From the NCBI GenBank assembly GCA_963843975.1, contig CAWJMG010000003.1, positions 2,700,001-2,732,000 on the forward strand: DNA of 32,000 nucleotides, read 5' to 3'. The notes under the pieces are model-generated. The model did not search any database. It saw only the letters and a program-made list of their open reading frames with translations, and was not told the origin of the DNA. Both the position numbers and the translations under genes were made by a program. Of this stretch, positions 12,740-32,000 are shown in pieces. Within the stretch, counting starts at the first letter, position 1, and each line of letters opens with the position of its first letter. Source of the DNA: an uncultured Actinomycetes bacterium (GTDB taxonomy: Bacteria; Actinomycetota; Actinomycetes; S36-B12; CAIYMF01).

Positions 12740-12747
12740 CCCGCCCT

Positions 12748-12783: not shown

Positions 12784-12808
12784 TGCCGTCACACTGGACT
12801 GGAAGGGA

Positions 12809-15438: not shown

Positions 15439-15445
15439 CAGATCA

Positions 15446-15485: not shown

Positions 15486-15620
15486 GCGCCTGATGCCCGG
15501 TTGGACCCGGGCGACCATCGCCAGGATGCGCAGCACCAGCCGCGCGGGCCGTGACTCGCAGTGAGACGCCGCCAGGACGCACGGAGGCCGGTCCCCGCTA
15601 CGGGTCAGGCCGTCGGACGC

Positions 15621-16976: not shown

Positions 16977-17596
16977 GTGGTGTCCGTGGCGAGCCGGTAG
17001 CCGACGTTGCGGACGGTCTCGATCAGACCGGCGCCGACCTTGCGCCGCAGCCCAGCGACGCACACCTCCACCAGGTTCGGTGCAGCGTACGGCTCCAGCC
17101 ACACGTCCTCGAGGAGGGCCTGCTTGGCTACGACCTGATCCGGTCGGGCGGCGAGGTAGGCGACGACGTCGTACTCGCGGGCGGTGAGGTCCAGCTCGAC
17201 CCCGTCGAGCCAGGCGCGGCGCCGCGTCGGCTCCAGCCTGACCGGTCCCGACTGCTGCACAGTTGCGGCGCGGTCGATGTGGGTCAGCCTGTTGATCCGG
17301 CAGCGGACCAGCACCGCGTGGACGGTCGAGGCCGGCCTGCCCAGCTCCCCGGCGATCTGGACCGGGCCCAGCCGCTTCTTCCACCGCAGGTGCACGATCC
17401 GACGCTTGACCGGCTCCGGGGTCCGGTTCGGGGAGCGGTGGGGACGGCTGGAACGGTCGATCATCGCCGCGGCCGTCGGGGCCTGACCGGAGCCCGCGAG
17501 CAGGTCCCGATAGCGGTCCGACCACCGCTTGGCGGTCGGCCTGGACACCCGGAAGCAGTCCGCCGCCGCGGCGACCGGCAAGTCCTCCTCCACCAC
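16973..17596 (-). pseudogene. Chimeric ORF: IS481-type transposase N-terminal HTH fused in frame to the OmpR-type winged-helix domain of a truncated response regulator
   Basis: Residues 1 to about 112 (EEDLPVAAAADCFRVSRPTAKRWSDRYR...MIDRSSRPHRSPNRTPEPVKRRIVHLRWKKRLGPVQIAGELGRPASTVHAVLVRCRINRLTHIDRA) match the N-terminal HTH region of IS481-family transposases. Residues about 118-207 (VRLEPTRRRAWLDGVELDLTAREYDVVAYLAARP...NLVEVCVAGLRRKV...TVRNVGYRL) are a Trans_reg_C effector domain. There is no receiver domain and no DDE domain. Junction near 17245-17265. Confidence 0.75.
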
Positions 17597-17786
17597 CAGC
17601 CGACTCGTCAGAAGGTCGTGCTGGCGGGTTCCTTTCCGATTCGACTCTGACCTGCTCCTGGTCTTCTGGCAAACGGCAGCGACGCCATCGCAGACACCGA
17701 GAACCCCTCTCGCCTCCTCCTACTTTGCCGTCCGGGGCGGGTCGACCGAGGGGGCGCCTCTGCTCGTGGCCCGACTCGTTCGCAAA
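17250..17786 (-). mobile_element. IS481-family remnant (left end and 5' part of transposase gene only)
   Basis: See the chimeric ORF. The same frame stays open upstream of 17596 (..NRKGTRQHDLLTSRLVVEEDLPV..) and resembles a decayed IS481 N-terminus without an ATG. The catalytic region is absent. Boundaries are approximate. Confidence 0.55.
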
Positions 17787-17892
17787 TCGACGCAATGACC
17801 TCTCCATGTAGCGACGGTGGTTTCAGCGAGACTGCTGCAACCGGTTGAGCGAGTGGCACAATCCCGGGTAGGGCAAGCAGACAGGGGGCGTC

Positions 17893-18207
17893 ATGGCGCA
17901 GCAGACGGTGGCCACCGCGGGCGCGACCGCGTTGGGCGGTCGGGCGTTGATGGTCGTCGGGGTGGTCGCGGCGTTGCTGGGCGTGTTCGCCTGGGGATGG
18001 GACGTGGACCCGGGCGCCGGCAAGGCGTGGCTGGTCGTGGGTGCGGTGTCCGTGATCGTCGGCTGGTGGGCCGCCCGGTCGGTCGTCAGTTCCGCCGTGT
18101 CGCGCGTGCTCCTCGTGGTCGCGGTGGTGCTCGCGGTCGTCGTGGTCATCGACGCGGTGCAACTCGTGCAGCTGTCCAACCTGCAGCGTGGCGGTTCCCT
18201 CGCCTGA
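17893..18207 (+). CDS. Small membrane protein (3 predicted TM), passenger ORF inside the IS1595 element
   Basis: ATG 17893 follows AGGGGG. GC3 is very high in this frame. Hydrophobic spans: ALMVVGVVAALLGVFAW, AWLVVGAVSVIVGWWAA, VLLVVAVVLAVVVVIDAV. Convergent with the transposase gene. No recognisable family. Confidence 0.55.
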   Translation: MAQQTVATAGATALGGRALMVVGVVAALLGVFAWGWDVDPGAGKAWLVVGAVSVIVGWWAARSVVSSAVSRVLLVVAVVLAVVVVIDAVQLVQLSNLQRGGSLA

Positions 18208-18216
18208 CCACCTTGG

Positions 18217-19288
18217 TCAGCGCACCACGCGACGCCAGGGGCGGCCGGCGTCGGGCTGGGCGAGGCTGCGTGGGTTGCTGCGCTCGGTCGGCGGCTCCGG
18301 ATGGACCTTCCGCTTCTGGCCCCCGATGGCGACGTCGGCGTAGGTGATGGGGTCGGTGCGCACGGCCTGCTCGAGGAGCCGGTAGAACAGAAGGCCTGGC
18401 TTGCGAGCGTGCCTGCGGTTGAACCGGAACTCGAACTCCCAGAGGTACTCGGTCATGTGCTCGCGGCTGACCGAGCCCTGGTGGGTGCCGTGCAGCCACC
18501 GCTTGAGCTGCGCCTGGACGCGGGAGACGGCCGGATACAAGTCGTGGGCCTTGCTGCCTGAGCGCTTGGTGTTGATGGCCACGTGCTCGAAGCCCGCGAG
18601 CGCCTTGGTGAGCGCGCCGTAGGCATCGGTGAGCACCCTGGTCCCGGGCTCGATGTTGTCCAGGAGCACGGCGTTGATGCTCTCCGCCTTGTAGTTCGGC
18701 ATCACCACCAGCCGCGCTCGACCGATGCCCTTGCCAGCGCCGCCGGCTCCGGACCGACCGAGGTTCTCCGCCATCGCCAAGACGATGATGCGGTTGGAGT
18801 GCAGGGACCTGCCCGGGTATCCAGGGAGGTTGCGGCCGCCCACCGTGGTCTCGTCGACCTCGACAACGCCCGAGAAGCTTCTTGCGGTCGGGCATCACCA
18901 TCGCGCGGCGATAGCGGTGGGCCATCATCCACGCCGTCTGGTAGCTGCCCAGGCCGAGCGTGCGCTGCAGCGTCCGCGCCGACACGCCGTTGGCCCTGGC
19001 TGTCATCTCCCACGCGACCCGGAACCACACCGTCAGCGGGGTCCTCGTGCGCTGGAACAGGGTCCCCGCAGTGACCGAACTCCGCGAGCCACATGCACCG
19101 CAGTCGTAGGCACGCCCGTCAGCGCGACGCCAGCCGTGCGCGATAGAGCCGCACGACGGGCAGACGAACTCCAGGTCGCCCCAGCGCAGCCACGCAAGGT
19201 AGTCCAGGCACGCCTCGTCGTCGGGGAACCACGCCGCGAACTCCACGAGGTCGCGCGGGTACTCCTCACCGCCTACGGGATGTGCCAC
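18217..19288 (-). pseudogene. IS1595-family (ISXO2-like DDE) transposase, interrupted by a frameshift
   Basis: The N-terminal frame (track ORF 18146..19288) has the zinc ribbon (FVCPSCGS...YDCGACGS) and reads through to ...HRYRRAMVMPDRKKL. The DDE domain continues in another frame (track ORF 18217..18843), from ..SGVVEVDETTVGGRNLPGYPGRSLHSNRIIVLAMAE on to ...MTEYLWEFEFRFNRR. The shift maps to about 18869-18880, where one extra base in aagcttCtcggg fits. Confidence 0.8.
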
Positions 19289-19572
19289 CTGATCACGGTA
19301 GACACCAACGAATGACCGTCGCTACATGGAGAGGTCATTCGACGCATTGCGAGTTGTTTCGAAGGGGTCATCAACAACGTTGGCCAGTAACGGCTGGTGC
19401 CGTTCCCGCAGGTCACAGGCTGCAGCCATCCGCTTGGTACCGGCCAGGAGTGGGGTCTCACCTGCTCTGTGAGCAATCCGTGAGCAACCGCGTTCGCTAC
19501 GTCGGGATGGTGCGCGCCACTCAGCCAGTCCACAGCCAACGTTGCGTACGGTTCGAGCATGGTCAGTGACGG

Positions 19573-20958
19573 GTGCGCCGCGGTCGGCACCGTGCTGCCG
19601 TGGTAGGCCCCCGTCCCGGGGCGAGGCTTCGCTCCACCTTTGCCGCGACGCTCGTCGTCGCGGTGGCGCTGACGATCGGCGCTGTCGGCATGGTGTTGAT
19701 CCTGCGTGCGTCGTTGACCCAGACGGTCCGGGACTCGGCGCAGCAGCGAGCCAACGACGTAGGGACTTCGGTGGCAGCGGGGGGTGCCGCCCGCGACGCG
19801 ATCGTGGTCGGCAACGTCAGTGAGCGTTCCGTCGTACAAGTGCTCGATCCTCAGGGGACTGTGCTGGTTTCCAGCCCCGAGATCGACGGCGAGCCCGCAC
19901 TGACCTCGGCGCGCCCGGCACCAGGGAGTGTCCAGGTCTCCACCCAGAGGGTCCCGGTGGCTGACCAGGAGTCGTTCGTCGTGGTGTCCCGCGGTGTTCA
20001 CACGCCAACCGGCGATGCGATCGTGGTCGTTGCGCAATCGCTAGACGCGGTGGACGCCAGCGTGACGACGGTCGAACGCCTTCTTGTCCTCGGATTCCCC
20101 GTCGTCCTCCTGGTCGTCGCCGGGTCGGTGTACTACGTCGTCGGCAGGACGCTTCGCCCGGTCGAGGAGATCCGGCGGCGGGTCGCTGCGATCAGCGCCA
20201 CGGACCTTGACATGCGGGTTCCGGTGCCGGCTGCCGACGATGAGGTGGGCCGGCTCGCCCTCACGATGAACAGGATGCTCGATCGGTTGCAGGACTCTCA
20301 GGCCACGCAGCGTCGGTTCGTCGCTGATGCCAGCCACGAGCTGCGCAGCCCGCTGGCGGCCATTCGGGCGACCGTCGAGGTGGGCCTGGAGCATCCCGGA
20401 TCGCAGCCTTGGGACGATGCTGCCCCAGCGGTTCTGGCGGAGACCGATCGGCTCAGCAGGCTGGTGGACGACCTGCTGCTCCTCGCGCGTTCCGACGAGA
20501 TCGAGAGCCCCCGAATTCATCGTGATGTCGATCTCGACGACATCATGATGATCGAGGCAGATCGCCTTGGACGGCTGGGGAAGATCGACGTCTCGGTCGA
20601 TGTCACGCCCGCGCGGGTGGCTGGCGATCGTCAGCAGCTCGAACGGCTGGTGCGCAACTTGTGCGACAACGCCGTGCGTTACGCGACCTCATCGGTCGCT
20701 CTCTCGGTCGGCATGGACGGTGCCTGGGCAGTCCTGGTCGTGCAGGACGACGGACCGGGTATCCCTGTCGCGGACCGAGATCGCGTCTTCGACCGGTTCG
20801 TACGCCTGGATCCGGCCCGGGACCGACTCTCCGGTGGCGCCGGGCTCGGCCTGGCGATTGTCTTCGAGGTGGCGCGCGCTCACGGCGGAACAGCGGCCGT
20901 GGAGGACTCGGCCTCCGGAGCACGCTTCGTTGTGCGCCTCCCCGCAATGAGGACGTGA
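19573..20958 (+). CDS. Sensor histidine kinase (paralog 2), convergent with its presumed regulator
   Basis: GTG start. TM1 (ATLVVAVALTIGAVGMVLIL), sensor segment (VVQVLDPQGTVLVSSPEI...), TM2, HAMP. H-box FVADASHELRSPLAAI, N-box VRNLCDNAVRYA, DDGPGI, GGAGLGLAIV. Clear paralog of 13465..14868. Confidence 0.92.
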   Translation: MRRGRHRAAVVGPRPGARLRSTFAATLVVAVALTIGAVGMVLILRASLTQTVRDSAQQRANDVGTSVAAGGAARDAIVVGNVSERSVVQVLDPQGTVLVSSPEIDGEPALTSARPAPGSVQVSTQRVPVADQESFVVVSRGVHTPTGDAIVVVAQSLDAVDASVTTVERLLVLGFPVVLLVVAGSVYYVVGRTLRPVEEIRRRVAAISATDLDMRVPVPAADDEVGRLALTMNRMLDRLQDSQATQRRFVADASHELRSPLAAIRATVEVGLEHPGSQPWDDAAPAVLAETDRLSRLVDDLLLLARSDEIESPRIHRDVDLDDIMMIEADRLGRLGKIDVSVDVTPARVAGDRQQLERLVRNLCDNAVRYATSSVALSVGMDGAWAVLVVQDDGPGIPVADRDRVFDRFVRLDPARDRLSGGAGLGLAIVFEVARAHGGTAAVEDSASGARFVVRLPAMRT

Positions 20959-21017
20959 CTTCGTCCTAGCGGCGAAGCGAGCTTCCAACGGTTCGGGGAC
21001 CCGGCCCTCAGCTCCGG

Positions 21018-21713
21018 CTACCCACCGTTGTCGGCGAGGCGGTATCCCACCCCGCGTACGGTCTCGACGCCCTGCCGGTGGAACGGCGCGTCGATCTTGC
21101 GGCGCAGGTATCCGATGTAGACCTCGACGACGTTGGAGTCTCCCTCGTAGTTCTCGTCCCACACGGCTGCGAGGATCTCGCTCTTGGTGACGACATCGCC
21201 CTTGCGGCGAAGGAGGAAGTGCAGGAGCCCGAACTCTCGAGGAGTCAAAGCAATCTGCTTGTCTGCCCGAAGCACGTGGCGACGAGCCGGATCCAGAGTG
21301 AGATCCCCGGCTTGCAGGACGGCGGGGCGTTCTGGTGCTCCGCGACGTAGCAATGCGCGCAGTCGCGCCACCAGCACGACGAAGGAGAACGGTTTCGTCA
21401 GATAGTCATCGGCCCCCAGGTCGAACGCGTCCGCCTCGTCGTGCTCGCCGTCCTTGGCCGTGAGCATGAGGACAGGCGTCCAGATCTCCTCGTCACGCAG
21501 GCTCTGACAGACCCGGTATCCGTTCAGCTTGGGCAGCATGATGTCCAGGACGATCACGTCGTAGCTGCCCTCACGGGCCATCCAGAGTCCCTGCTCACCG
21601 TCCCGAGCCACATCGACCTGGAATCCCTCGGCGGCGAGACCACGCTGTACGGCGTCGACCAGCCTCGGCTCGTCGTCGACCAGCAGCACCTTCACCCCAT
21701 CACTGTCTCTCAT
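21018..21713 (-). CDS. OmpR/PhoB-family response regulator (paralog 2)
   Basis: VKVLLVDDE...LDIMLPKLNGY...LMLTAKDGEHDEADAFDLGADDYLTKPFSFVVLVARLRALLRR...LTPREFGLLHFLL...TVRGVGYRL. Near-identical motif strings to 12809..13519. ATG 21713 overlaps the 3' end of the upstream PAP2 gene by 14 nt; the alternative GTG is 21695. Confidence 0.92.
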   Translation of the reverse strand: MRDSDGVKVLLVDDEPRLVDAVQRGLAAEGFQVDVARDGEQGLWMAREGSYDVIVLDIMLPKLNGYRVCQSLRDEEIWTPVLMLTAKDGEHDEADAFDLGADDYLTKPFSFVVLVARLRALLRRGAPERPAVLQAGDLTLDPARRHVLRADKQIALTPREFGLLHFLLRRKGDVVTKSEILAAVWDENYEGDSNVVEVYIGYLRRKIDAPFHRQGVETVRGVGYRLADNGG

Positions 21714-22629
21714 CTGACCTGAGACGACCCTGAGTTCCGATCCGTGGTTGCTGCAGTTGTTCGTTGAGTCGGGGGCCTCGTGACGATCCTGGCCGCAGCA
21801 CTGGCTCTCGCGACGGTCCCAGGAGAATCAGGGCCCCCGTTACGGCCAACACCGAGGCCAGGCCGACAACGTAGAGCGGGCTGGCCGCCTCCCCGAGCTC
21901 GGGACCTGATCGTGTCTGAGGAGCAACTGCGCCAGCGATGACCGCCGCGCCCATCACCGCCCACCAGCCCCACCCTGAGGTCGATGCGGAGAACGGAGCA
22001 CCTACCCGCGACCGTCCCACCGTGACACCCTCTGCCTCGTCCGCCGCCCGCCGGCGTACCAGTGCCGAGTGCCAGGTCACGCCGAGCAGGACTCCGCCGA
22101 CTGCGTCACTGGGGCGATGCCACCCCGCTGCCACGGTGCCGGCGGCAACGAGGCTCACCCAGGCCACGAGAGGTCCCCAGCATCGACGAGCGAGCTTCGG
22201 GTTCAACGTTGATGCCACAGCGAGAGCGAACCCGGTGGCAATAGTCGCGTGCCCGCTGGGGAACGAACCGCCAGCAACGATCTGACCGACCGGCGAAGCG
22301 CCTGCTGCAGTGGGCAGGAAGTGTTTGAGCAGCTCGGCAGACACGACGGCACCGATGACAGCTGCCGCAATCCGCACGGCGGGTCCGCGGCCCTGCCGTC
22401 GATACGTGCGCCAGCTGACTACGAGCAGACCCACGGACAGAGTGACGATCGTGATCGTCGACAAGGCCAGGCGCTCCATCACGATCAGCCCGGATCCGCT
22501 GTCCAACCGGCTGACGAGCGCCGAACGATCCGCCGCAGCGACGCGTGGGACGAACGTGATCAGCGCATAGAGGACGATCAGAGCGACGGCCGAGATCGAC
22601 GCGGTGGCGCGTCGCGAAGGGGACCTCAT
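21700..22629 (-). CDS. PAP2-superfamily membrane protein with degenerate catalytic motifs and extra C-terminal TM region
   Basis: Start taken at MRSPSRR (complement of 22627-22629) inside track ORF 21700..22680. C2 motif FPSGHA is present. C3 has only the H-x3-D part (GWHRPSDAVGG). The C1 K-x6-RP motif is not recognisable (ELLKHFLPTAAG). About 100 extra residues follow with two hydrophobic spans. Same strand as regulator 21018..21713 and overlapping it. Confidence 0.75.
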   Translation of the reverse strand: MRSPSRRATASISAVALIVLYALITFVPRVAAADRSALVSRLDSGSGLIVMERLALSTITIVTLSVGLLVVSWRTYRRQGRGPAVRIAAAVIGAVVSAELLKHFLPTAAGASPVGQIVAGGSFPSGHATIATGFALAVASTLNPKLARRCWGPLVAWVSLVAAGTVAAGWHRPSDAVGGVLLGVTWHSALVRRRAADEAEGVTVGRSRVGAPFSASTSGWGWWAVMGAAVIAGAVAPQTRSGPELGEAASPLYVVGLASVLAVTGALILLGPSREPVLRPGSSRGPRLNEQLQQPRIGTQGRLRSDERQ

Positions 22630-22737
22630 GACCACAGCCTGCGCACTGCACCTGTGGCGACGCTGAGGATCAGCCGTCAAGCCGGCTCGCGTGCGCCGGG
22701 TCTCGGGAAGTCGCGCACCGTGACGATGGATAAGGGC

Positions 22738-22756
22738 CTCTCATGCGCTCTCATGC
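22738..22756 (+). promoter_or_regulatory. Tandem direct repeat CTCTCATGCgCTCTCATGC upstream of acidic-protein gene 2
   Basis: A 9-mer repeated at 22738 and 22748 (10-bp phase), 100 and 90 nt upstream of ATG 22838. A further CTCTCAG sits at 22785-22791. Lies in the PAP2/acidic-protein divergent intergenic region. Confidence 0.4.
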
Positions 22757-22837
22757 CCACCACAGCCCCCGGGGGGCAACGTGTCTCTCAGTCCTCGACA
22801 CCCCGCTCGCGGACCCACGCATCCATCAGGAGTAACC

Positions 22838-23209
22838 ATGAAGCTCACCAAGAAGGGTGTTGCCGGAACTGTCGGCGCCGCCGCCCTGCTCGCCAGCGTC
22901 GGTCTGGGCCTGGGCTCCGTCGCGCAGGCCGCCCCGGCCACCTCGACGATCCTGCCGGCCGTCGCGGCCGTCAGCGCAACCACGGCGGACGCTGAGACCG
23001 CCGACTCGGCGAAGGACACCGACTCCCTCCAGGAAGGCGACCAGACGACGCCGGACACCGGCACGGCTGCCGAGACCGAGTCGACCACGGAGTCCGCCGC
23101 CGGCAGCGAGACCGCGTCGGAGACCGGCCCGTCGGACGGGAACGACGGCGGCCACGCTGACGCCCCCGGCGCCGACGTGAACCACGAGGGCGGTGCGGAC
23201 GAGAAGTAG
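22838..23209 (+). CDS. Small secreted hyper-acidic low-complexity protein, copy 2 (unrecognised family)
   Basis: ATG 22838 lies 6 nt after CAGGAG, inside track ORF 22781..23209. Signal peptide MKLTKKGVAGTVGAAALLASVGLGLGSVAQA. Mature part has 20 D+E vs 2 K (hand count), with T/S/E/D repeats and the end GNDGGHADAPGADVNHEGGADEK. Confidence 0.7.
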   Translation: MKLTKKGVAGTVGAAALLASVGLGLGSVAQAAPATSTILPAVAAVSATTADAETADSAKDTDSLQEGDQTTPDTGTAAETESTTESAAGSETASETGPSDGNDGGHADAPGADVNHEGGADEK

Positions 23210-23217
23210 CCCGCCCC

Positions 23218-23251
23218 GGACGGGACGTCGCCACCAGGCGACGTCCCGTCC
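23218..23251 (+). terminator. 15-bp perfect stem-loop after acidic-protein gene 2
   Basis: GGACGGGACGTCGCC (23218-23232), loop ACCA, GGCGACGTCCCGTCC (23237-23251), 9 nt after the stop. Confidence 0.65.
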
Positions 23252-23501
23252 ACACGTTCACCCCCAACCGCTTTGCCAGTTCCTAACCAGCGAGTGGGTA
23301 CCGTCGAAGGCACGCAAGTCCATCGCCGGGGATACTCGGCCACGCGGTCATCGTGTTGGCACTGACTCGATCGAGGGGCAGCTGGCCGAATCGATCCCAG
23401 GAGAGCCGATGACCCCGATACCTCCCGCGGGTCAGGAACAACCCCCCGTCTTTCACGATGGGCCACTCGCCTCTCCTAGACCTGACCATGACGCACAGCC
23501 C

Positions 23502-23850
23502 GTGAGCGCGACGAGCGTGACATTCACTCGACGTTCGCTCCTGGTCCTCGGCGCCACAGTCGCCTTGAGCGCATGCAGAGCTCACGACACCCGCTCCGGC
23601 GCCGACGCCACCTGTGAAGCCCCGCGACCTCTCGACAGGTTCGGACGACCCAGACACTCAGGACCACCCTTCATCGCGCAGCCCGTCCGCCTCCGACGGC
23701 TCGCGCGACAGCGACCCGCCGTCCACCGCGCCCGCCGACCCGGACACCCAGAACGCCTCAAGCGACCCGGTGTCCGATTCGGGCTCCGACTCCACCGCCG
23801 AGCCGCCGCCGCCCGTGGCCTCTAGCACGCCACAGCCTCAGCCGACGTAG
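23502..23850 (+). pseudogene. Acidic Ser/Asp/Pro-rich lipoprotein gene, apparently frameshifted just after the lipobox
   Basis: In frame 0, VSATSVTFTRRSLLVLGATVALSAC (twin-Arg-like n-region plus lipobox LSAC, 23502-23576) runs on into Arg-rich nonsense. The +1 frame reads from 23569 (..AELTTPAPAPTPPVKPRDLSTGSDDPDTQDHPSS...SDPVSDSGSDSTAEPPPPVASSTPQPQPT, stop 23848-23850; track ORF 23614..23850). One extra base near tgcAgag (23573-23580) would reconcile the two frames. Confidence 0.4.
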
Positions 23851-24080
23851 TGAAGCCATCAAGGGTCCGGGCATCGGGTTCGCTGCGGTGGCCGCGGGTC
23901 GCTTGGTCGGGGTCGACGCGACGCATCTCCGGTGCTCATCACTGTCTTGGCGTTGGTGCTGCTGATCTGGAGCGCGATCCGGTTAGGTGCTCGCGAGTCC
24001 TCGTCGACTGGTGTCGGTGGAGGGGGCTCAGACGCCCACTGGGACTCGTCCTCTGGTGACGCCGTGAAGGTAAGCGGAAG

Positions 24081-24102
24081 GTCTTGAACATGTGTTCAAG
24101 AC
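24081..24102. promoter_or_regulatory. SOS-box-like palindrome GTCTTGAACAtgTGTTCAAGAC
   Basis: 10-bp perfect arms. The core GAAC-ATGT-GTTC fits the GAAC-N4-GTTC LexA (Cheo-box type) consensus of Gram-positive and actinobacterial LexA. Located in a locally AT-richer patch with no convincing ORF on either side. A TGTTCAA half-site recurs at 24139-24145. Confidence 0.4.
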
Positions 24103-24173
24103 CATTACCGACGATGTGCTCACCTATGGTTCTTCGTGGTGTTCAAACCTCACTTCGAGGGTCAGGACCCCTG

Positions 24174-24220
24174 CCGCCCCACCCCGGTCCGTCGTCCCCC
24201 CTCTGACCTGGGTGGGGCGG
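24174..24220. repeat. Hairpin element copy A (CCGCCCCACCC-N25-GGGTGGGGCGG)
   Basis: 11-bp perfect arms with a C-rich loop. Shares the exact 16-mer GACCTGGGTGGGGCGG (24205-24220) with copy B (27882-27897). Further hairpins follow at 24218-24245, about 24272-24300 and 24320-24333. Confidence 0.6.
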
Positions 24221-24787
24221 CTACCTACTCAAGCGCGGGTAGCCGGAACTTGCCGTTGCCCGCGGGGGCACGGCCGAGGTGGGTAAGCCGCCGCCTCGGT
24301 CGCAGCGCATCCGCCTCTGGACGGGTACCCGTCGCCTGGTCCGTTGAGTGGCGGGACCCCATGCCTATCAGCGTCGTCGGGTGCGCAACTGCTCGTGTCC
24401 GTGCAGGCACTGTCACAACTCGACGATGCTTCCGAAGAAGATCGCGTGAACCGGCTCCCCGCAGCCATGGCACTCCAGCGTCAGGTCCGCCGGGCCCTCC
24501 TCCGATCAAGGTGTAGCGATGACGAGCTCATGGGTCGGTCGGGCCGCGTTCGCGTTCTCGGTGGCAAGCCCACGAGGAGCGAGACGACACACGCTGCCAG
24601 GATCGGTGGCGCGGCCAGGCGGATGACATGACTATCGACCTTCGTCTTCTTACCCCCGTGGGTGTCCGCGTCGAACGTTGTCACCCCCTCCGGCTAACCG
24701 GATCAGCGATAGTTGCCGCCGGCTTGAGCGGTAGCGGCAAATTCCGAACAATCGCGAGCGAGGCTTCAGCCCGTCACCCCACGTCGT

Positions 24788-25195
24788 CTAGGGCATCGAC
24801 AGGCCGGCGAGCCGGTGCAAGGCCTGGAGGCCTTCAGGTGTCCCGGGCCAGTGCCGTCGCAGCGCGTCGCCACCGGCGCGGCGCACGACCGATCTCAGCA
24901 CGACCGCGACCAGGATCGCGTCGTCGGCGTAGCCCAGGACGGGGATGATGTCTGGCACTAGATCGAATGGCAGCAGTAGGTAGCCGACCAGTAGCCACAA
25001 CCGCACCCGCACACCGGCCGGGAGCGACCGGTCCCGCGCCAAGCGCGACACCAACCGCAGCGTGTCCGGTAGCAGCCGCATCGCCTCACCCGCGGTCGCC
25101 TCGGCCGGTCGCTGCCACCACAGCACGGTGATCAAAGCCGCCCACAGCAGCAGCAGACCCGCGACTACGCCGACTACGACCTGCCACCAGTTCAC
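24788..25195 (-). CDS. DUF1232 (YkvA-like) membrane protein
   Basis: Track ORF. N-terminal TM, then LLVGYLLLPFDLVPDIIPVLGYADDAILVAVVL, the conserved core of DUF1232. Confidence 0.8.
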   Translation of the reverse strand: MNWWQVVVGVVAGLLLLWAALITVLWWQRPAEATAGEAMRLLPDTLRLVSRLARDRSLPAGVRVRLWLLVGYLLLPFDLVPDIIPVLGYADDAILVAVVLRSVVRRAGGDALRRHWPGTPEGLQALHRLAGLSMP

Positions 25196-25611
25196 CGGCT
25201 TTACTCCTCACGCGGTTCGACGCCCCTCGTCCGCCCGATGGTGTCAAGCATCCGGGCGAGTGGGAGCCCGCTGGTCACAGGCACATCCTGCGGGAGTTGC
25301 CGACCTTGATGCGCCTGGATGAGTTCAAGGCCTCGCGGGCGGCGACGGGTGGGCGAGACGGGGCGTGGTCGGTCGCGAGCGTGCGTCCGTGACCGGGTGC
25401 CGTGAATGATGGGGTCTTCAGGTCGAAGGACTCCGAAGGTCGCTGCGCAGCCGTTCCGTGACAACTCACGCGGTCAGCCCCTCATGCGCGAGGCCCAGAC
25501 TCGCGCACGCCACGGGGACCGCCACACCGTGACAGTGCCGCGTCGGTGCTCGCTTTGCGAGCGATAGCGAAGCCTCTACGGCGCGCCGCGGAGCGGATAG
25601 GACTGTGCCAT

Positions 25612-25914
25612 CTACCCGAGCGACATGGGTGAGCTCCACTCCCCGTCCACCCACCGAGGCTCGCCCTCCAGTAGTGGCGCCAGACGTGCGAGCCAGAAAG
25701 CTTCTTGCGCAGGGTCGTCGGACAGTGCCTGGTAGGCCTCTCGGTCAGAGAAGCGCGCCCAGTTGATCACTGTCAGTCCGTCGTCGCTGTAGAGGACTCC
25801 AGCGTCGACGAACCCGGTGATGTGGGGCGCGCGTTCACGCAGCCAGTCGTCGAAAGCAGCCTGGATCTCTTGGCGGTTGGATTTCGTGGTGGCGATCATC
25901 GTTGTGCCGTACAT
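25612..25914 (-). CDS. ABM/Dabb-fold (antibiotic biosynthesis monooxygenase-like) small protein
   Basis: Start taken at MYGTTMIATT inside track ORF 25612..25944. About 100 aa with the pattern ...FDDWLRERAPHITGFVDAGVLYSDDGLTVINWARFSDREAYQAL..., compatible with a ferredoxin-like ABM domain. The assignment is tentative. Confidence 0.5.
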   Translation of the reverse strand: MYGTTMIATTKSNRQEIQAAFDDWLRERAPHITGFVDAGVLYSDDGLTVINWARFSDREAYQALSDDPAQEAFWLARLAPLLEGEPRWVDGEWSSPMSLG

Positions 25915-26287
25915 GGGGTCACCGTCTGGGATCGGGCCGCGCACAGCAGCCGAGACTCACAGCCGGCGCGACAGGCAAGATCTGACTCCCGCACGCTACG
26001 CCCCTGCGCTTGGGCTGCGAAAGCCCCGAAAGACGGCCAACGAACCACGGCTCGGTGTGGGGGCTCCGGGAGGCGCTTCGGAAGGATTCGACACCCCGGC
26101 TGGCAGCGCAGTCCTCAGGTGTTGGAGGCGCCCGCGTTACGGGAGATCTCGGATGCCTCGACGACCTTTGAACTCAGGGGTGCGACATGTCGATCCGGCT
26201 GCTGCACATGGATTTCACACCTGCTGTTGACCCTGCGATGACTCGATAGCGGGGACCGCATTACCCAGGGTTGCCTAACCTCGCGGC

Positions 26288-27139
26288 ATGACCTCCTCCC
26301 CCAGCACTTCCCTTGCGACGCGTCAGTTGCTGAACAAGGTCCCCGAGATCACCGTGGTGTTCTGGGTCATCAAGATCCTGTGCACCACGGTCGGGGAGAC
26401 CTTCGCCGACCTGCTCAACGAGAAGCTGGGCCTAGGGCTCACCCTGACGACGTACGTCATGGGGACGTTCCTGGCGCTGATGCTGATCGTGCAGTTCTCA
26501 TACCGCCGCTACGTGCCCTCGGTGTACTGGACCGTCGTGGTGCTGCTCAGCGTCGTCGGCACGCTGATCACCGACAACATGACCGACAACTTCGGCATAC
26601 CGCTGGCGACGTCGACGTTGCTCTTCGCTGCCGCTCTCGCTGTCACGTTCGTGGTCTGGTACGCCGTCGAAGGAACCCTGTCGATCCACAGCATCACCTC
26701 GATCCGGCGCGAGGTCTTCTACTGGCTCACAATCCTGTTCACCTTCGCCCTGGGCACCGCCGCCGGCGACCTGGTCGGGGAGAAGTTCGGCCTGGGCTAC
26801 CTGTGGTCCGTCGTGCTGTGGGGGTCGCTGATCACGGTCATCGCGGTGGCGCACTCCCGGTTCGCCCTCAACGCTGTCCTGGCGTTCTGGTCCGCCTACA
26901 TCCTCACCCGCCCGCTGGGTGCCTCGATCGGGGACCTGCTGTCCCAGAAGCCGGTCGACGGCGGACTCGGCCTGGGCATCCTGAAGATCAGCGTCGTGTT
27001 CCTGCTGACCATCGCTGCGCTGGTCGGCTACCTCACCAGGACCCGCGCGGACGTCACCGAGTACCACCTCTCACCCGAGGACGACGCTCTCTTGGACCAG
27101 CAGGACACCACCGCGGCTCCTGCGCCCCGCATCGCATGA
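26288..27139 (+). CDS. COG4705-like polytopic membrane protein with four internal repeats
   Basis: KVPEITVVFWVIKILCTTVGETFADLL is the hallmark N-terminus of this family. The unit [FY]W-x(8-10)-G-x(3-4)-D recurs four times: VVFWVIKILCTTVGETFAD, SVYWTVVVLLSVVGTLITD, VFYWLTILFTFALGTAAGD, LAFWSAYILTRPLGASIGD. Stop overlaps the next start (ATGA 27136-27139). Confidence 0.8.
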   Translation: MTSSPSTSLATRQLLNKVPEITVVFWVIKILCTTVGETFADLLNEKLGLGLTLTTYVMGTFLALMLIVQFSYRRYVPSVYWTVVVLLSVVGTLITDNMTDNFGIPLATSTLLFAAALAVTFVVWYAVEGTLSIHSITSIRREVFYWLTILFTFALGTAAGDLVGEKFGLGYLWSVVLWGSLITVIAVAHSRFALNAVLAFWSAYILTRPLGASIGDLLSQKPVDGGLGLGILKISVVFLLTIAALVGYLTRTRADVTEYHLSPEDDALLDQQDTTAAPAPRIA

Positions 27140-27828
27140 GCGGCCCAACTGCCGTTGCAGGCCATGTCCGGCTGCAGCCACAGGCGCTGCTCGAGCACGC
27201 ACGCCGGGCATGGCCCGTCCTGCTTGTCGCGTCTTCGGCTGCGGTGATCCTCGCGGGACTCACGGACGCCGTCGGCGAGCACGACGGCGTGACCGCAGTC
27301 GACCGGCCTGTCGCCGCCTGGTTCGCCGCGCACCGAACCTTCGCGCAGGGCAGCCTCGGGCTCCAGCTCGCGCACGCCACCTCACCTGCCGTCCTGATCG
27401 CACTGGTGCTGCTCACCGCCGTCGTCCTGCTGCGACGAGGCCTTCGCAGCGAAGCGCTCCTTCTCACCGGTGCGACGGTGGTCGCCTACGCCTCCGGTGC
27501 GGTGCTCAAGTTCGGCGAGCACCGTGCGCGGCCGTCGTCGCCAGTGAACCTGGCGCCTGAGGGTGAGCCGTCGTACCCATCGGGTCACGTCCTGGTCGTG
27601 GCCGTGATCGCCTTCACCGTCGTCGCCCTGGCGTGGTCGCACCTGTCCCGTGCCGGCCGGGTGACGGCCGTGGCCGTCGCCTCGGTCGCTGTCGGGGGCA
27701 TCGCCCTGGACAGGCTGGTCGTGGGGGCGCACTGGCTCACCGACCTTGCCGGGTCTCTCGCCTTGGCCGTGGTCATCGTGAGCGTCGTCATCGCAGCGCT
27801 GCGATTGCTGCCAGAAAAGGCTGCGTAG
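27136..27828 (+). CDS. PAP2-family phosphatase (canonical motifs)
   Basis: This is the last 230 codons of track ORF 26380..27828. C1 KFGEHRARP, C2 YPSGH, C3 DRLVVGAHWLTD (the complete K-x6-RP / PSGH / [SD]R-x5-H-x3-D signature), with about 6 TM. Translationally coupled to the COG4705-like gene. Confidence 0.87.
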   Translation: MSGPTAVAGHVRLQPQALLEHARRAWPVLLVASSAAVILAGLTDAVGEHDGVTAVDRPVAAWFAAHRTFAQGSLGLQLAHATSPAVLIALVLLTAVVLLRRGLRSEALLLTGATVVAYASGAVLKFGEHRARPSSPVNLAPEGEPSYPSGHVLVVAVIAFTVVALAWSHLSRAGRVTAVAVASVAVGGIALDRLVVGAHWLTDLAGSLALAVVIVSVVIAALRLLPEKAA

Positions 27829-27852
27829 CCGGGCCGCCTCCCCAACGCCAGG

Positions 27853-27896
27853 CGCCCCACCCGGGCCCCCGGGGGGAGGTGGACCTGGGTGGGGCG
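27853..27896. terminator. Hairpin element copy B between convergent genes
   Basis: CGCCCCACCC (27853-27862) pairs with GGGTGGGGCG (27887-27896). The inner GGGCCCCC/GGGGGG is also self-complementary. Lies between stop 27828 (+) and stop 28029 (-). Related to copy A at 24174-24220. Confidence 0.6.
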
Positions 27897-28028
27897 GGCC
27901 TTGATCGGACCCCTGAGGAAGGGGCCTTCTACGCGGTTCCGACGTTAGAGCACACCGCAGGAGTGACCGGTGGCGAACTGGCGATTCCAGATCGACTGCG
28001 GAGGTTCGCTCCCGCGAGGGTGCGCGTG

Positions 28029-28481
28029 TCAGTCGTCCGAACCCGAGTCGTCGGAGCCCGAGCCGGAGTCGTCGGACGAGCCGTCGTGGCTGTCTCCGGA
28101 CTGCGAGCCGGCCTGGCCGTTCTCGTGGTCACCGTCGTCCGTGGCCTGCTCGCCCTGGTCGTCGTCACCCTGCGCGTCGGCGTTCTCGCCCTGGTCGTCG
28201 GACTCCACAGACTGGCTGGCAGCGGGCTCGGCAGTCTCCGCCTGGTTGCTGCTCTCGACCGCGTCCGGGGTATCGGACACCTCTGGGGTCTCGGCGGCGT
28301 CGGGGGTCTTGGAGACCTCAGGGGACTCAGACTCGGTCTGGTCAACCTCGGGAATGGAGGTGGCCACCACGTCGGGGGTCGACGAGACCCGCGGGGTGTC
28401 GGCGTGGCTGGCGGCGAACGCAGCCGTCGAGCCGAGCAGCACGCCGGCAACGGCGAGGGGAACAACGAGTTGCAGCTTCAT
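28029..28481 (-). CDS. Small secreted hyper-acidic low-complexity protein, copy 3 (unrecognised family)
   Basis: Track ORF. RBS GAAGGA lies 7 nt upstream. Signal peptide MKLQLVVPLAVAGVLLGSTAAFA. Mature part has 36 D+E vs 2 K+R (hand count). Short repeats: PEVS[KD]TPDA, DDQGE, SDDSGSGSDDSGSDD. Confidence 0.72.
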   Translation of the reverse strand: MKLQLVVPLAVAGVLLGSTAAFAASHADTPRVSSTPDVVATSIPEVDQTESESPEVSKTPDAAETPEVSDTPDAVESSNQAETAEPAASQSVESDDQGENADAQGDDDQGEQATDDGDHENGQAGSQSGDSHDGSSDDSGSGSDDSGSDD

Positions 28482-28559
28482 GGTGGTCCTTCGCGTTGGG
28501 GGTCGAGTCCTCTCTGCTCAGCATCGGCTGGCGGCAGTGGGTAACCAGCCAACGGGCAT

Positions 28560-28587
28560 CCAAGATCCGTCCAAGAGGTCGCCAAGA
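28560..28587 (-). promoter_or_regulatory. Three CCAAGA (gene orientation TCTTGG) direct repeats at exact 11-bp phase
   Basis: CCAAGA at 28560, 28571 and 28582. In the orientation of gene 28029..28481 this reads TTCTTGGcgacCTCTTGGacggATCTTGGatgc, 79-106 nt upstream of its ATG, in the least GC-rich part of the intergenic region. Confidence 0.45.
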
Positions 28588-29016
28588 ACCGAATATCGAC
28601 GCCCACGACACCTCGCGGACGTCGAGCACGGCCTGGGTCCGGCGGCCAGGCGCCAGCCCGCCGTTCGAACGAGCGAGATGTGGCTGGGGGCCGGGGGGCG
28701 TGACGAGGCCACTTTGTCCAGATGACGGTCGGTGGTCCGAGTGACGCGCGAGCAGGCGAGTGGTTCTCGTCGCCGATCTGCCACCCGTCGGGGCTGATCT
28801 ACATCCCGGGCATGCAGAGTGGAACGGCGTCACCGAGCGGCCCCATCATTCTCATCCCCTCGACCCAACGATCACGATCGTCAGCGCGGACTCCTCTGGC
28901 TCCAAGGAGCGGCGGGCCGCTGACGGCGCGCTGTCGAGGCCGTACGCCGCGCATCTTGGAGGTGTGGATGATCTCGCGCCCAGCGCGCCCAGCGCGCCTG
29001 GTGGTGCTGGGTCGTG

Positions 29017-32000
29017 ATGTCTTTGGCGCGTATGTCCGCGGGCGCGGGGTACCAGTACCTGTTGCGCCACACCGCGTGTGGTGATGTGCAACGAGACCCT
29101 TCGACGCCGTTGACGGCGTACTACACCGCGTCGGGCTATCCGCCCGGCTCCTGGTACGGCGCCGGGCTTGCCGTCCTCGGGATCGCGTCCGGCGCAGCCG
29201 TGACCGAGGTAGGCATGGCCCGTCTCTACGGCCACGGCCAGCACCCCACTAGCGGAACGCCGCTGGGCCGCCCCTACTTGGCGTTCCGCAGCCAGGCGCA
29301 GCGCATCGCCGACTCCGTCGCGGCGCTGCCGGAGTCGATGACGGACTCCGCCCGGGCTGCGGCGGTCGAGGCGATCACCCGGTTGGAGGCCGCACGGAGG
29401 CCGCGTGTCGCGGTTGCCGGGTTCGATCTCACGTTCACTTCACCGAAGTCGGCCAGCGTGCTGTGGGCGTTGGCCGACCCGGACGTTCAGGCCCTCGTGG
29501 TCGCCGCGCATCGGGCTGCGGTCCGCGACGCGCTCGCGTTCCTGGAGGACCGGGCGCTGTTCACCAGGATCGGGCACAACTCGATCGCCCAAGTCCCGAC
29601 CCGCGGGATGGTCGCTGCCCTGTTCGATCATTGGGACACCCGCACCGGCGACCCGAACCTGCACACCCATGTCGTGGTGGCGAACAAGGTCCAGGGCCTC
29701 GATGGGGTGTGGCGGTCCCTGGACTCCCGGGCCCTGCACCACGCCGCGGTCGCGGTGTCCGAGCTCTACGACAACCTGCTCGCCGACCACCTCACGACCG
29801 CGCTCGACCAGAACACCGGCCACCGGGCTGGGTCCTCGTGGGGGTGGCGGGATCGCGGACCGCGGCGCACCCCGGCCTTCGAGCTCGACGCCGTTCCCGA
29901 CGACCTACTCACCGAGTTCTCAACCCGATCGGCGGCGATCGCCACCGCGATGACCGACGCCCTGGTCGACTTCCACGCCGCGCACGGACGCGGACCGAAC
30001 CGGGTGGAGACGACCCGTCTGCGTCAGCAGCTGACCACCGCGACCCGCCCCGCCAAGACGATGCGCCCGCTGCCCGAGCTAATGGCATGGTGGCGCGAGC
30101 GAGCCCGGCGCCTGCTGCGCCGCGCCCCGCACCCGCTCCTCGCCCCCGCGTGGAGCAGCCAGCACGCGACACCGGCGTTCACCGCCGCCATGGGTCGTAG
30201 TCGCGTCGGAGTCCGTCACGATACTGACGGAGTCGCCGGGCCAGTCCGTCACGGACTCCGTCACGGGACCCTGACCAGCGACGATACCTCAGCCGTCGGC
30301 AGCCAAGGCTGGCGCGGCACGGCACGATCCGGCGGGATGCTCCGCAGCCGGCTGCACCCACGCTCCGCCCACACAGCCCGTCCGAGCGTCTCCGACGACG
30401 TTGTCGAGCACCTCGCCGCAGTAGCCCTGGACGCGGTACTGGCGAGGCGCTCGACGTGGACCCGGTGGAACCTGCTCGCCGAGGCCGCGCGCGCCACCCG
30501 CGGTCTGCGGCTACCGAGCGCGGCGGAGCGGATCGCCTTGCACGACCGCGTCTGCGCGACCGCCCTTGCCGGCTGCATGCCGTTGACCGCGCCGGACCGG
30601 TGGACCGTGCCGGAGGGGTGGCGGCGCCCCGACGGCACCACAGTGTTCGACCGACCCGACGAGGATCGGTTTAGCCACAGGGTCATCCTGGACGCGGAGG
30701 CCCGCCTGCTGGCCGCCGCCGCCGACCAGCACGCCCCCGGCGTGGACGAAACGGTCGCCCGCAGCGCAGCGGTCAAGGTCCAGTCGCCGCGCCACCCCGG
30801 GGGTCGCCACGTGCGCCTCGCCAGCGATCAGGTCGACGCCGTCATCGGCATCGCCACCTCGCGGCGGCTCCTGGATGTCCTGGTCGGTCCGGCGGGGACC
30901 GGGAAGACCACGACCCTGCGCGCCCTGCGCACCGCGTGGGAGAACGTGCACGGGCCCGGCACGGTGCTCGGGCTGGCACCATCGGCGGCTGCGGCGCACG
31001 AGCTCGCCGACGCCCTCGGCGTAGCGTGCGAGAACACCGCGAAGTGGCTGCACGAGTCCACCGGCCCCGCCGCCCAGCAACGCGCCGCGGTGCGCGCGGG
31101 CCTGCTCGAACGGCGCACCGCCGCGACCAGCGCGGGCGACGCGCGCACGGTGCGGCGGGTCGACACCGCGCTGGCCCGACTCGACGCGCAGCAGGACCGG
31201 TGGCGGCTGCGGCCCGGGACGCTGCTCGTCGTCGACGAGGCGTCCCTGGCCGGCACACTGGCCCTCGACGACCTGGCCGCCCAGGCTGCTGCCGCGGGGG
31301 CCAAGCTGCTGCTCGTCGGCGACCACCACCAGCTCGGCGCCGTCGACGCGGGCGGCGCGTTCGCCCTGCTCGCCGCCACCGGCGCCGCGCACCGGCTGCG
31401 GTCGCTGTGGAGGTTCACCCACCGGTGGGAGGCCCACGCCACCCGGGCCCTGCGCGAGGGGCATCCGGGCGCCCTTGCGACCTACGACCGTCACGGCCGC
31501 ATCCATGAGGGAGGGCCCTTGGACGTCCTCGACGCTGCCTACTCCGCGTGGGCGAGCGACAGCCGCGGCGGCGCGTCGGCGCTGCTGCTCGCCGCCGATG
31601 GCGCGACGGTCGCCGCTCTCAACCACCGTGCCCGCACCGACCGCGTCGCCGCCGGTCTCGTCGACGATACGACCACCGTCCGCCTCGCCGATGGACTGCA
31701 AGCCGGCACCGGGGACCTCGTCGTCACGCGCCGCAACGACCGCCGCCTGGCCACCGCCGCGGGCGGCCATGTCCGCAACGGCACCCGCTGGACGCTCACG
31801 ACCATCCACGCAGACGGCAGCGCCGACCTCGCGGCGCAGTCCGGCACCGACCCAGAAGGCACCGGCCAGGACCGTGTTCGTGTGCCTGCCGACTACGTGC
31901 GCCGCCACCTCGAGCTCGGCTACGCCACCACCATCCATCGGGCCCAAGGACTCACCGTCGACCACACCCATCTCCTGGCCACCGAGGGCATGACCCGCGA
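29017..32000 (+). CDS. MobF-family (TrwC/TraA-like) conjugative relaxase with C-terminal RecD-like helicase, 3' end outside window
   Basis: Hand translation of frame 1 from ATG 29017 is open to base 32000, so it is absent from the ORF track because it has no stop. MSLARMSAGAGYQYLLRHTACGD...LTAYYTASGYPPGSWYGAGL (Tyr motif), FDHWDTRTGDPNLHTHVVVANKVQ (3-His motif), Walker A VLVGPAGTGKTT (about 30877-30912), LLVVDEASL, and GYATTIHRAQGLTVD near the end. Confidence 0.92.
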   Translation, partial: MSLARMSAGAGYQYLLRHTACGDVQRDPSTPLTAYYTASGYPPGSWYGAGLAVLGIASGAAVTEVGMARLYGHGQHPTSGTPLGRPYLAFRSQAQRIADSVAALPESMTDSARAAAVEAITRLEAARRPRVAVAGFDLTFTSPKSASVLWALADPDVQALVVAAHRAAVRDALAFLEDRALFTRIGHNSIAQVPTRGMVAALFDHWDTRTGDPNLHTHVVVANKVQGLDGVWRSLDSRALHHAAVAVSELYDNLLADHLTTALDQNTGHRAGSSWGWRDRGPRRTPAFELDAVPDDLLTEFSTRSAAIATAMTDALVDFHAAHGRGPNRVETTRLRQQLTTATRPAKTMRPLPELMAWWRERARRLLRRAPHPLLAPAWSSQHATPAFTAAMGRSRVGVRHDTDGVAGPVRHGLRHGTLTSDDTSAVGSQGWRGTARSGGMLRSRLHPRSAHTARPSVSDDVVEHLAAVALDAVLARRSTWTRWNLLAEAARATRGLRLPSAAERIALHDRVCATALAGCMPLTAPDRWTVPEGWRRPDGTTVFDRPDEDRFSHRVILDAEARLLAAAADQHAPGVDETVARSAAVKVQSPRHPGGRHVRLASDQVDAVIGIATSRRLLDVLVGPAGTGKTTTLRALRTAWENVHGPGTVLGLAPSAAAAHELADALGVACENTAKWLHESTGPAAQQRAAVRAGLLERRTAATSAGDARTVRRVDTALARLDAQQDRWRLRPGTLLVVDEASLAGTLALDDLAAQAAAAGAKLLLVGDHHQLGAVDAGGAFALLAATGAAHRLRSLWRFTHRWEAHATRALREGHPGALATYDRHGRIHEGGPLDVLDAAYSAWASDSRGGASALLLAADGATVAALNHRARTDRVAAGLVDDTTTVRLADGLQAGTGDLVVTRRNDRRLATAAGGHVRNGTRWTLTTIHADGSADLAAQSGTDPEGTGQDRVRVPADYVRRHLELGYATTIHRAQGLTVDHTHLLATEGMTR

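Follow-up and report, generated by a model that had tools for sequence, protein, structure and literature searches.

The subject of this report is a gene for a small, strongly acidic secreted protein, located on the reverse strand (positions 28029–28481) of a 32,000-nt stretch of contig CAWJMG010000003.1 from an uncultured actinomycete (hereafter, the window) and convergent with the gene of a PAP2-family phosphatase. The protein would best be described as a lineage-restricted variant of exported, disordered ion-binding proteins; its partnership with PAP2 enzymes is recurrent. As to its function, we tentatively favor, on the strength of composition and genomic context, a regulator-controlled extracellular sponge for cations or metals, encoded within a metal-resistance island and endowed with a predicted N-terminal X-X-His site. 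The gene had been singled out in an earlier note on this DNA (below, the original prediction). Positions are those of the window unless a contig is named; G000 denotes the genome holding the window (4.19 Mb), and C1, C3, etc., are its contigs. Feature coordinates are collected in Table 1.

Since open frames are frequent in DNA with a G+C content as high as that of the window (ca. 69%), an open reading frame (ORF) such as that at 28029–28481 needs independent coding support. The G+C content at its codon positions 1, 2, and 3 (0.72, 0.51, and 0.88, respectively) follows the coding pattern of the genome. Comparison with a paralog on C1, 83% identical at the protein level, yielded a ratio of non-synonymous to synonymous substitution rates (Ka/Ks) of 0.30 for the acidic gene, next to 0.34 for the PAP2 gene and 0.21 for the DUF347 gene duplicated together with it. 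The constraint is unevenly distributed: the signal peptide has accumulated seven synonymous and no non-synonymous changes, and the C-terminal acidic part shows a Ka/Ks of 0.19. The Pro/Glu/Thr-rich middle (TPDA/TPEV) is the loosest and fastest-evolving segment (Ka of 0.156), and a 6-nt indel separates the SDDSGSG tail repeats of the two copies. In addition, gene calling on 12 metagenome contigs gave exactly the same 150-aa protein, in each case encoded beside the genes of the PAP2 protein (230 aa) and the DUF347 protein (283 aa). Judging by these patterns, the ORF is a real gene, maintained by purifying selection, and codes for a product with a conserved export signal. The 150-aa reading frame, the ribosome-binding site (AAGGA, with 5 nt between it and the ATG), and the signal peptide (MKLQLVVPLAVAGVLLGSTAAFA) named in the original prediction have all been borne out.

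The protein contains 36 Asp and Glu residues against three Lys and Arg residues in the precursor (K2, R31, K58) and two in the mature form, so the earlier count of 36 acidic versus 2 basic residues holds for the mature protein and not for the precursor. The predicted mature chain (127 aa, 12.8 kDa, net charge of about −34 at pH 7) is devoid of Cys, Phe, Leu, Met, Trp, and Tyr, possesses three His, and ends with the tail SDDSGSGSDDSGSDD. As had been noticed before, the coding sequence is built from short tandem repeats; Tandem Repeats Finder (TRF) resolved three blocks of them, including that at 28031–28090. The AlphaFold2 model obtained with the family alignment (mean predicted local distance difference test score, pLDDT, of 51.5; predicted template modeling score, pTM, of 0.11; no secondary structure) is consistent with an intrinsically disordered protein, and the composition agrees with this. 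The acidic protein features neither a lipobox Cys nor a hydrophobic C-terminus or LPXTG anchor (it ends with ..SGSDD); hence, it would qualify neither as a lipoprotein nor as a sortase-anchored surface protein.

The acidic gene does not travel alone. Alignment of the window with the C1 copy delimits a block of 2.4 kb in which the 5′ leader of the gene is poorly kept, the regulatory box described below stands out as an island of conservation, and similarity stops directly outside the operator. Transposase-like ORFs, which by eye resemble IS3 transposases, border the C1 copy. Judging by this alignment, the acidic gene moves together with the DUF347–PAP2 operon as one unit.

Relatives of the acidic protein are confined to a narrow phylogenetic range. 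Homologs were found in 12 of 24 genomes of the genus with the window protein as the query, and in 16 of 27 with a chromosomal paralog as the query; in G000 itself, a further paralog of ca. 40% identity is encoded at C3:2496080–2496547. None was found in 16 genomes from other genera of the same order, and 35 genomes from other genera of the same family yielded two marginal matches. Together with the identity level within the genus (35–50%), this distribution indicates that the family is fast-evolving and restricted to a single actinobacterial, Longivirga-like genus. The family is hallmarked by a nearly invariant signal peptide ending with AFA, by Pro/Glu/Ser/Thr repeats, often with His, and by tails rich in Asp, Gly, Ser, and His terminating with DD or DDD. 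Of 19 members, 13 have a His third after AFA (AFA-x-x-H), preceded by two variable residues. Most orthologs share one chromosomal neighborhood, in which the neighboring translations read as a glutaminase-like protein, a phosphate transporter of the PiT type, and a permease of the NCS2 type; hence, the window and C1 copies represent derived, mobile versions.

The protein belongs to no Pfam or NCBIfam family; a profile search of the PDB returned nothing below an E-value of 0.5, and a word-indexed protein search gave no match at E ≤ 0.001. The exact sequences of the protein and two of its paralogs are absent from a collection of 15 billion sequences. An exhaustive phmmer search of 1.84 billion representatives brought up only nine weak matches (best E-value of 1.6e-6), most of them from other lineages and having in common with the query only the signal peptide, the TPE repeat, and the G/D/Q composition. 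One match, P0005, also bears DQG..DAQGDD units and is a possible true relative. A wider family spanning several phyla was considered as well; the single-member query gave mostly repeat-driven matches, which were discarded as evidence.

The acidic gene is preceded by three direct repeats of the hexamer TCTTGG, a candidate box for a response regulator (RR) of the OmpR/PhoB family. The exact arrangement TCTTGG-N5-TCTTGG occurs at only three loci in the 4.19 Mb of the genome. A search of the 220-nt regions upstream of the family genes, in each gene's own orientation and with up to two mismatches allowed, located the box at −84 to −110 in 13 of 19 genes, versus 0.0035 expected per region. Hexamer repeats spaced by one helical turn, situated at a fixed distance from the gene, and conserved in its relatives are as expected of a member of an OmpR/PhoB regulon. 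The same box resides in the divergent promoter between an RR/histidine kinase (HK) pair (C1:834321–836469, with the RR gene at 834321–835070; hereafter, the core two-component system, TCS) and the gene of a 145-aa signal-peptide protein ending with ..KPDDD; the whole locus, with the TCTTGGACGTCCCTTGG box in its middle, spans C1:833775–836469. The core kinase is present in 27 of 28 genomes of the genus, and the box is found in the same place in 20 of 24. A kinase encoded in the genus shows 91% identity to its counterpart in Longivirga aurantiaca CGMCC 4.7317 (Sporichthyaceae), so the host would be Longivirga or a close relative. A further match in G000 lies upstream of the gene of another signal-peptide protein, ending with ..GGDDD. 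All five properly positioned box-linked genes encode proteins with a terminal DD, a feature of only 10 among 2974 likely genes. As the box is shared with the promoter of the core TCS, we infer that the acidic family belongs to the regulon of this system.

Other occurrences of the box in G000 were also recorded. The only other exact TCTTGG-N5-TCTTGG (C3:1608170–1608186) lies beside an integrase gene and a large ORF with a nucleoside triphosphatase-like motif (possibly a relaxase or helicase), with no obvious target gene at the usual distance. Another TCTTGG-type box, in the opposite orientation, is situated between the genes of two adjacent secreted proteins (C1:869204–871153) with ca. 30% Asp and Glu and DIDGDG-type repeats (Pfam TSP_3, 27 and 22 bits). 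An inverted TCTTGGACGTCCCTTGG box was spotted ca. 100 nt upstream of the gene of a secreted 294-aa Ala-rich protein (C3:2295346–2296230), with a predicted His-rich mature end that starts with HDGGSRHGGSGSH.

The second recurrent trait of the family is its proximity to PAP2 genes. Pfam matches to PAP2 were mapped in the 16 genomes with family members, and a match within 1 kb was encountered at 7 of the 23 family loci, as compared with 0.083 expected. The neighbors occur in four arrangements: convergent (the window and the C1 copy), PAP2 followed by the acidic gene (G011:C44, G004:C9, and G048:C25), the acidic gene followed by PAP2 (G005:C105), and divergent (G009:C16). Counting only these four as independent, the Poisson probability is ca. 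2e-6; the association is not a chance one, as had been surmised in the original prediction. It involves two PAP2 subfamilies, one 58% identical to the window enzyme and the other missed by tblastn with the window PAP2 at E ≤ 1e-5. The linkage is not obligatory, and several orthologs lack a PAP2 neighbor. The window enzyme displays a weak NCBIfam likeness to the undecaprenyl-diphosphatase SepP and to PgpB; the end of the DUF347 gene overlaps its start by 4 nt.

The DUF347 partner of PAP2 is far more widespread than the acidic protein: it is 55–70% identical to proteins in contigs labeled Chloroflexota, Bacillota, Bacteroidota, Nitrososphaerota archaea, and candidate-phyla bacteria. In a survey of 80 DUF347 loci from many phyla, about 50 adjoined genes of an OmpR-type RR and an HK, which suggests that this TCS-linked membrane protein has spread widely by horizontal transfer. 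In G000, a third DUF347–PAP2 pair (C3:2529888–2531755) is divergent from an intact RR/HK pair and lacks an acidic gene. The region upstream of the window operon (26200–26260) is 87–97% conserved with the C1 copy and comprises GCACATGGATTTCACACC, in which two xCACA units are spaced by 11 bp, and then TTGACC; possibly, these are a different response-regulator site and a −35 element.

The window harbors two more acidic genes. A genome-wide filter for small ORFs combining a signal peptide, a share of Asp and Glu of at least 17%, a share of Lys and Arg of at most 5%, and a coding G+C content at the third codon position (GC3) retained 14 ORFs in G000; three of them lie within 15022–28481, so the clustering within 14 kb pointed out earlier is real. 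The designation of the gene under study as the third copy did not hold: against gene 1 (15022–15438) and gene 2 (22838–23209), BLASTP returned E-values of 0.78 and 0.92, and hhalign with the family profile returned probabilities of 0.9% and 1.1%, respectively. With no detectable homology to the other two, gene 3 is an analogue and not a paralog, and the three genes are compositional and regulatory analogues. All of them encode signal-peptide-bearing, acidic, disordered-looking proteins with His in G/D/N-rich motifs, all are preceded by helically phased direct repeats ca. 80–100 nt upstream, and each adjoins TCS or PAP2 genes. Adjacency to a PAP2 or kinase gene had been claimed for gene 3 too; its PAP2 neighbor is there and a kinase is not, the RR/HK genes being neighbors of genes 1 and 2. 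The upstream repeats differ, namely, TCTTGG in gene 3, TCTCAG/TCTTGG in gene 1, and TCTCAT in gene 2, so different regulators are likely. More exactly, the upstream region of gene 1 (14880–15020) features TCTCAG-N5-TCTTGG, and that of gene 2 (22700–22835) features CTCTCATGC-N1-CTCTCATGC.

If the acidic protein is indeed a cation sponge, the following sequence of events can be proposed. An OmpR-family RR would dock on the three TCTTGG repeats ca. 90 nt upstream and switch the gene on; the likeliest candidate is the regulator of the core TCS, which has the same box in its own divergent promoter. The protein would then be exported via the Sec pathway to reside outside the cell as a disordered polyanion. 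Its carboxylate-rich chain (36 carboxylates and three His) may bind divalent and trivalent cations with low specificity and high capacity, and the predicted N-terminal Ala-Ser-His would provide one tight site for Cu(II) or Ni(II). In this way, the protein could buffer or soak up cations, possibly alongside phosphate released by PAP2, so that metals would end up immobilized as phosphates outside the membrane.

The closest known counterpart in terms of function is SilE/PcoE. SilE is a disordered periplasmic metal sponge of the sil/pco silver and copper resistance (PMC5008109). Similarly, the acidic protein is small, signal-peptide-bearing, and predicted to be disordered, it is encoded in a transcription unit of its own within a mobile metal-resistance determinant, its gene is apparently driven by an OmpR-family regulator, and high-capacity ion binding is proposed for it. 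At the same time, the searches in Pfam, NCBIfam, and the PDB disclosed no sequence similarity, the His/Met motifs for Ag(I) and Cu(I) are absent from the carboxylate-dominated chain (36 Asp and Glu), and the host is a Gram-positive actinomycete; hence, the acidic protein would be released and not periplasmic. Judged by its sequence, the protein is, accordingly, no member of the SilE/PcoE group, for want of both homology and the His/Met motifs serving as ligands.

The N-terminal site invites a second comparison. The ATCUN motif, an N-terminal site for Cu(II) or Ni(II), is NH2-X-X-H (PMC12509749). If the signal peptide is cleaved after AFA, as predicted by the −3/−1 rule, the mature protein starts with X-X-His and, hence, with an ATCUN motif. 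Such sites, which require a free N-terminus and a residue other than Pro at position 2, occur, e.g., in serum albumin and histatins. The predicted mature N-terminus of the acidic protein (Ala-Ser-His) resembles them, and the His is shared by 13 of 19 family members; the difference is that the site in this family is not universal and is predicted from the position of the signal-peptidase cut.

Precipitation of metal phosphates is familiar from PAP2 phosphatases of the PbrB and PhoN types. In Frankia, three paralogous operons of an undecaprenyl phosphatase and DUF347 are raised by lead stress, and the authors, drawing a parallel to PbrB, a PAP2 enzyme, proposed metal export along with precipitation by phosphate; in a diatom, DUF347 was also listed as the gene that metal induced most strongly (PMC4531530). 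The window displays a similar setting: PAP2, in translational coupling with DUF347, is separated from the acidic gene by 200 bp and belongs to an island with CDF, ArsR, and CopM-like proteins. Unlike the Pbr system, neither the 2.4-kb block nor its C1 copy encodes a PbrA-like P-type ATPase, and the exporter of the window is a CDF protein 22 kb away. The acidic protein is without a counterpart in all these systems, and the Frankia enzyme, given as an undecaprenyl phosphatase, may or may not be of the PAP2 type.

Several observations weigh against the proposed metal-related role. The X-X-His start is absent in 6 of 19 family members and rests on a predicted cleavage position. With only three His and neither Met nor Cys, the protein lacks the soft-metal ligands of SilE/PcoE, which makes a role with Cu(I) or Ag(I) unlikely. 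The best NCBIfam matches of the candidate regulator are CseB and CreB and that of the kinase is MtrB; CseB and MtrB point to envelope stress and not to metal sensing, and every one of these scores falls well short of its cut-off. The acidic gene and the DUF347–PAP2 operon have different upstream repeats and, hence, are probably not co-regulated. The G000 paralog in the conserved chromosomal position has no PAP2 neighbor. Finally, a secreted acidic ORF, as defined by a sequence filter, was present at only 2 of the 80 DUF347 loci, so the acidic partner is genus-specific.

Should the sponge reading be correct, the protein would be a Gram-positive counterpart of SilE/PcoE, unrelated to it in sequence and relying on carboxylates, and the widespread DUF347–PAP2 pairs would gain a testable partner and a phenotype. 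The TCTTGG box, in turn, would tie an island-borne gene to a core TCS and outline a small regulon of exported acid-tailed proteins approachable in the cultured Longivirga aurantiaca CGMCC 4.7317, in which a family gene is preceded by the box at −92. For a lineage-restricted low-complexity protein, the general impact would be modest unless the PAP2 partnership proves to be mechanistic.

Among the alternatives, the one with the most in its favor, unlikely as it is, considers the protein as an envelope-stress polyanion that either intercepts cationic antimicrobial peptides as a soluble decoy or modifies the surface charge. With its net charge of −34, the protein would bind any polycation, the best matches of the candidate regulator are envelope systems of the CseB, BaeR, and MtrB types, and the window encodes an ABC ATPase/permease set together with a VanY-like peptidase. 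Moreover, PAP2 proteins include the undecaprenyl-diphosphate phosphatases of cell-wall antibiotic resistance, and the PAP2 of the window is weakly SepP/PgpB-like. However, the regulator scores fall well short of the cut-offs (205 vs. 350 bits), the genes of the island are of the metal type (CDF, ArsR, CopM-like, CopRS-like), and the conserved histidines and the X-X-His N-terminus would be left without explanation.

It is rather improbable that a histidine kinase senses the secreted protein, either as such or loaded with cations, and is tuned by it as by a feedback ligand, in the manner of the accessory proteins tuning other actinobacterial two-component systems. Such a role would fit the gene of a secreted acidic-tailed protein being divergent from the core RR/HK genes across the genus, with the box in between, as well as the location of acidic genes 1 and 2 beside RR/HK genes; hhalign also joins the 145-aa KPDDD protein to the acidic family with 91% probability, a match extending only over the signal peptide. 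By contrast, gene 3 of the window has no adjacent kinase, several paralogs are found per genome, and the body of the protein is repetitive and fast-evolving (35–50% identity in the genus), which is atypical of a specific protein ligand.

A bolder combination of these elements can be put forward as a long shot: the core TCS would command, via the TCTTGG box, a set of exported disordered proteins with ..DD/DDD tails, on which the adjoining PAP2 enzymes would act outside the membrane, e.g., by transferring phosphate from undecaprenyl diphosphate onto the Ser-rich tails or by supplying phosphate for a templated metal-phosphate mineral. If true, the PAP2–acidic protein pair would constitute an extracytoplasmic protein-phosphatase partnership with no described bacterial counterpart.

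The narrower idea that the Ser/Asp tail is phosphorylated and that the neighboring PAP2 takes the phosphates off or puts them on, by analogy with mineral-binding phosphoproteins, is judged very improbable. The tail sequence (SDDSGSGSDDSGSDD) and the PAP2 adjacency kept in four arrangements speak for it, and LpxT, a member of the PAP2 family, does transfer phosphate outside the cytoplasm. However, PAP2 enzymes are known for acting on lipid and small-molecule phosphates, and we know of none acting on phosphoproteins; neither the block nor its C1 paralog showed a secreted protein kinase, and the Ser-rich tail is not conserved in the family, other tails being rich in His, Gly, and Asp. Of the likeness to acidic tails drawn in the original prediction, cation or mineral binding, thus, persists as the most plausible chemistry, and the phosphorylatable character, with no secreted kinase in evidence, does not; the further proposal that PAP2 dephosphorylates a phospho-form found no support for the same reason and in view of the different motifs upstream of the acidic gene and the DUF347–PAP2 operon.

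Lastly, a non-functional low-complexity ORF or an annotation artefact of a G+C-rich genome, as might be suspected from the lack of Pfam, NCBIfam, and PDB relatives, the empty word-indexed search, and the nine weak, composition-driven phmmer matches, is hardly credible in the face of the coding G+C profile of the codon positions, the Ka/Ks of 0.30, the fully conserved signal peptide, the intact orthologs or paralogs in 16 of 27 genus genomes, and the box at a fixed upstream distance.

Table 1. Location of the acidic gene, its parts, and other features in the window.
Feature	Position	Strand	Evidence or remark
Acidic secreted protein gene, precursor of 150 aa	28029..28481	-	ORF and translation, GC3 0.88, Ka/Ks 0.30, metagenome gene calls
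Sec-type signal peptide MKLQLVVPLAVAGVLLGSTAAFA, codons 1-23, predicted cleavage after AFA	28413..28481	-	best-conserved part of the family alignment; −3/−1 rule
Predicted mature N-terminus Ala-Ser-His, codons 24-26, X-X-His (ATCUN-type Cu(II)/Ni(II) site)	28404..28412	-	prediction
Tandem 36/18-nt repeats, TPDA/TPEV (Pro-Glu/Asp-Thr-Ser) segment	28253..28332	-	TRF periods 36 and 18
Tandem 36-nt repeats, DDQGE(N/Q)A..QGDD acidic units	28123..28200	-	TRF period 36, 2.2 copies, 81% matches
Tandem 21-nt repeats, SDDSGSG tail ending ..SGSDD	28031..28090	-	TRF periods 15 and 21 (period 21 at 28037-28083); repeat family D1/D3
Ribosome-binding site AAGGA, 5 nt before ATG	28487..28491	-	sequence reading
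Three TCTTGG direct repeats, 11 bp spacing (CCAAGA on +), candidate OmpR/PhoB-family response-regulator box	28560..28587	-	84-106 nt upstream of ATG
Duplicated block of 2.4 kb: promoter-DUF347-PAP2-hairpin-acidic gene-operator	26180..28591	.	89% nucleotide identity over 2,426 nt to G000:C1:1050732-1053148
DUF347 (COG4705) membrane protein gene, 283 aa	26288..27139	+	Pfam PF03988, 184 bits, 4 repeats
PAP2-family phosphatase gene, 230 aa	27136..27828	+	Pfam PF01569, 47.6 bits; intact KX6RP / PSGH / RX5HX3D
G+C-rich hairpin, inverted repeat I1, between the PAP2 and acidic genes	27853..27896	.	16-nt arms, 88% complementary
ArsR-family regulator	2943-3344		
CDF cation-efflux protein	4012-4959		
DUF305 protein, CopM-like	5380-6444		NCBIfam CopM metallochaperone 84 bits, cut-off 90
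Mutator-family (IS256-type) transposase gene	6876-8327		four other genome copies, 85-89% identity
Helix-turn-helix (HTH) fused to OmpR-type C-terminal domain	16973-17596		
TrwC relaxase with AAA_30 helicase domain, runs off window end	29014-31998		

The hairpin reported earlier between the convergent PAP2 and acidic genes is indeed present as an inverted repeat, is kept at 85% identity in the C1 copy, and is a probable bidirectional terminator. Its folding energy amounts to −42.7 and −44.8 kcal/mol, with z-scores of −1.1 and −1.8 versus shuffled sequence; though very stable, the hairpin is thus unremarkable for its base composition and is not claimed as a special element. No T-run follows it, and the scans for promoter and terminator consensus sequences came back empty.

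As to the surroundings, the gene content marks the window as a mobile metal-type island. In addition to the genes listed in Table 1, it contains an IS1595-type transposase domain, and the relaxase and insertion sequence (IS) elements suggest a conjugative or mobilizable island to which the region belongs. The RR/HK pairs of the island find their best models in the heavy-metal families cztR_silR_copR and cztS_silS_copS, with scores below the cut-offs. An 8.7-kb stretch of the window (8530–17269), comprising ABC transporter genes, RR1/HK1, acidic gene 1, and kinase 3, recurs as a 98% identical copy at G000:C3:2520562–2529302. In that copy, the third response regulator is intact and divergent from another DUF347–PAP2 pair; in the window, its place is taken by the HTH fused to an OmpR-type C-terminal domain.

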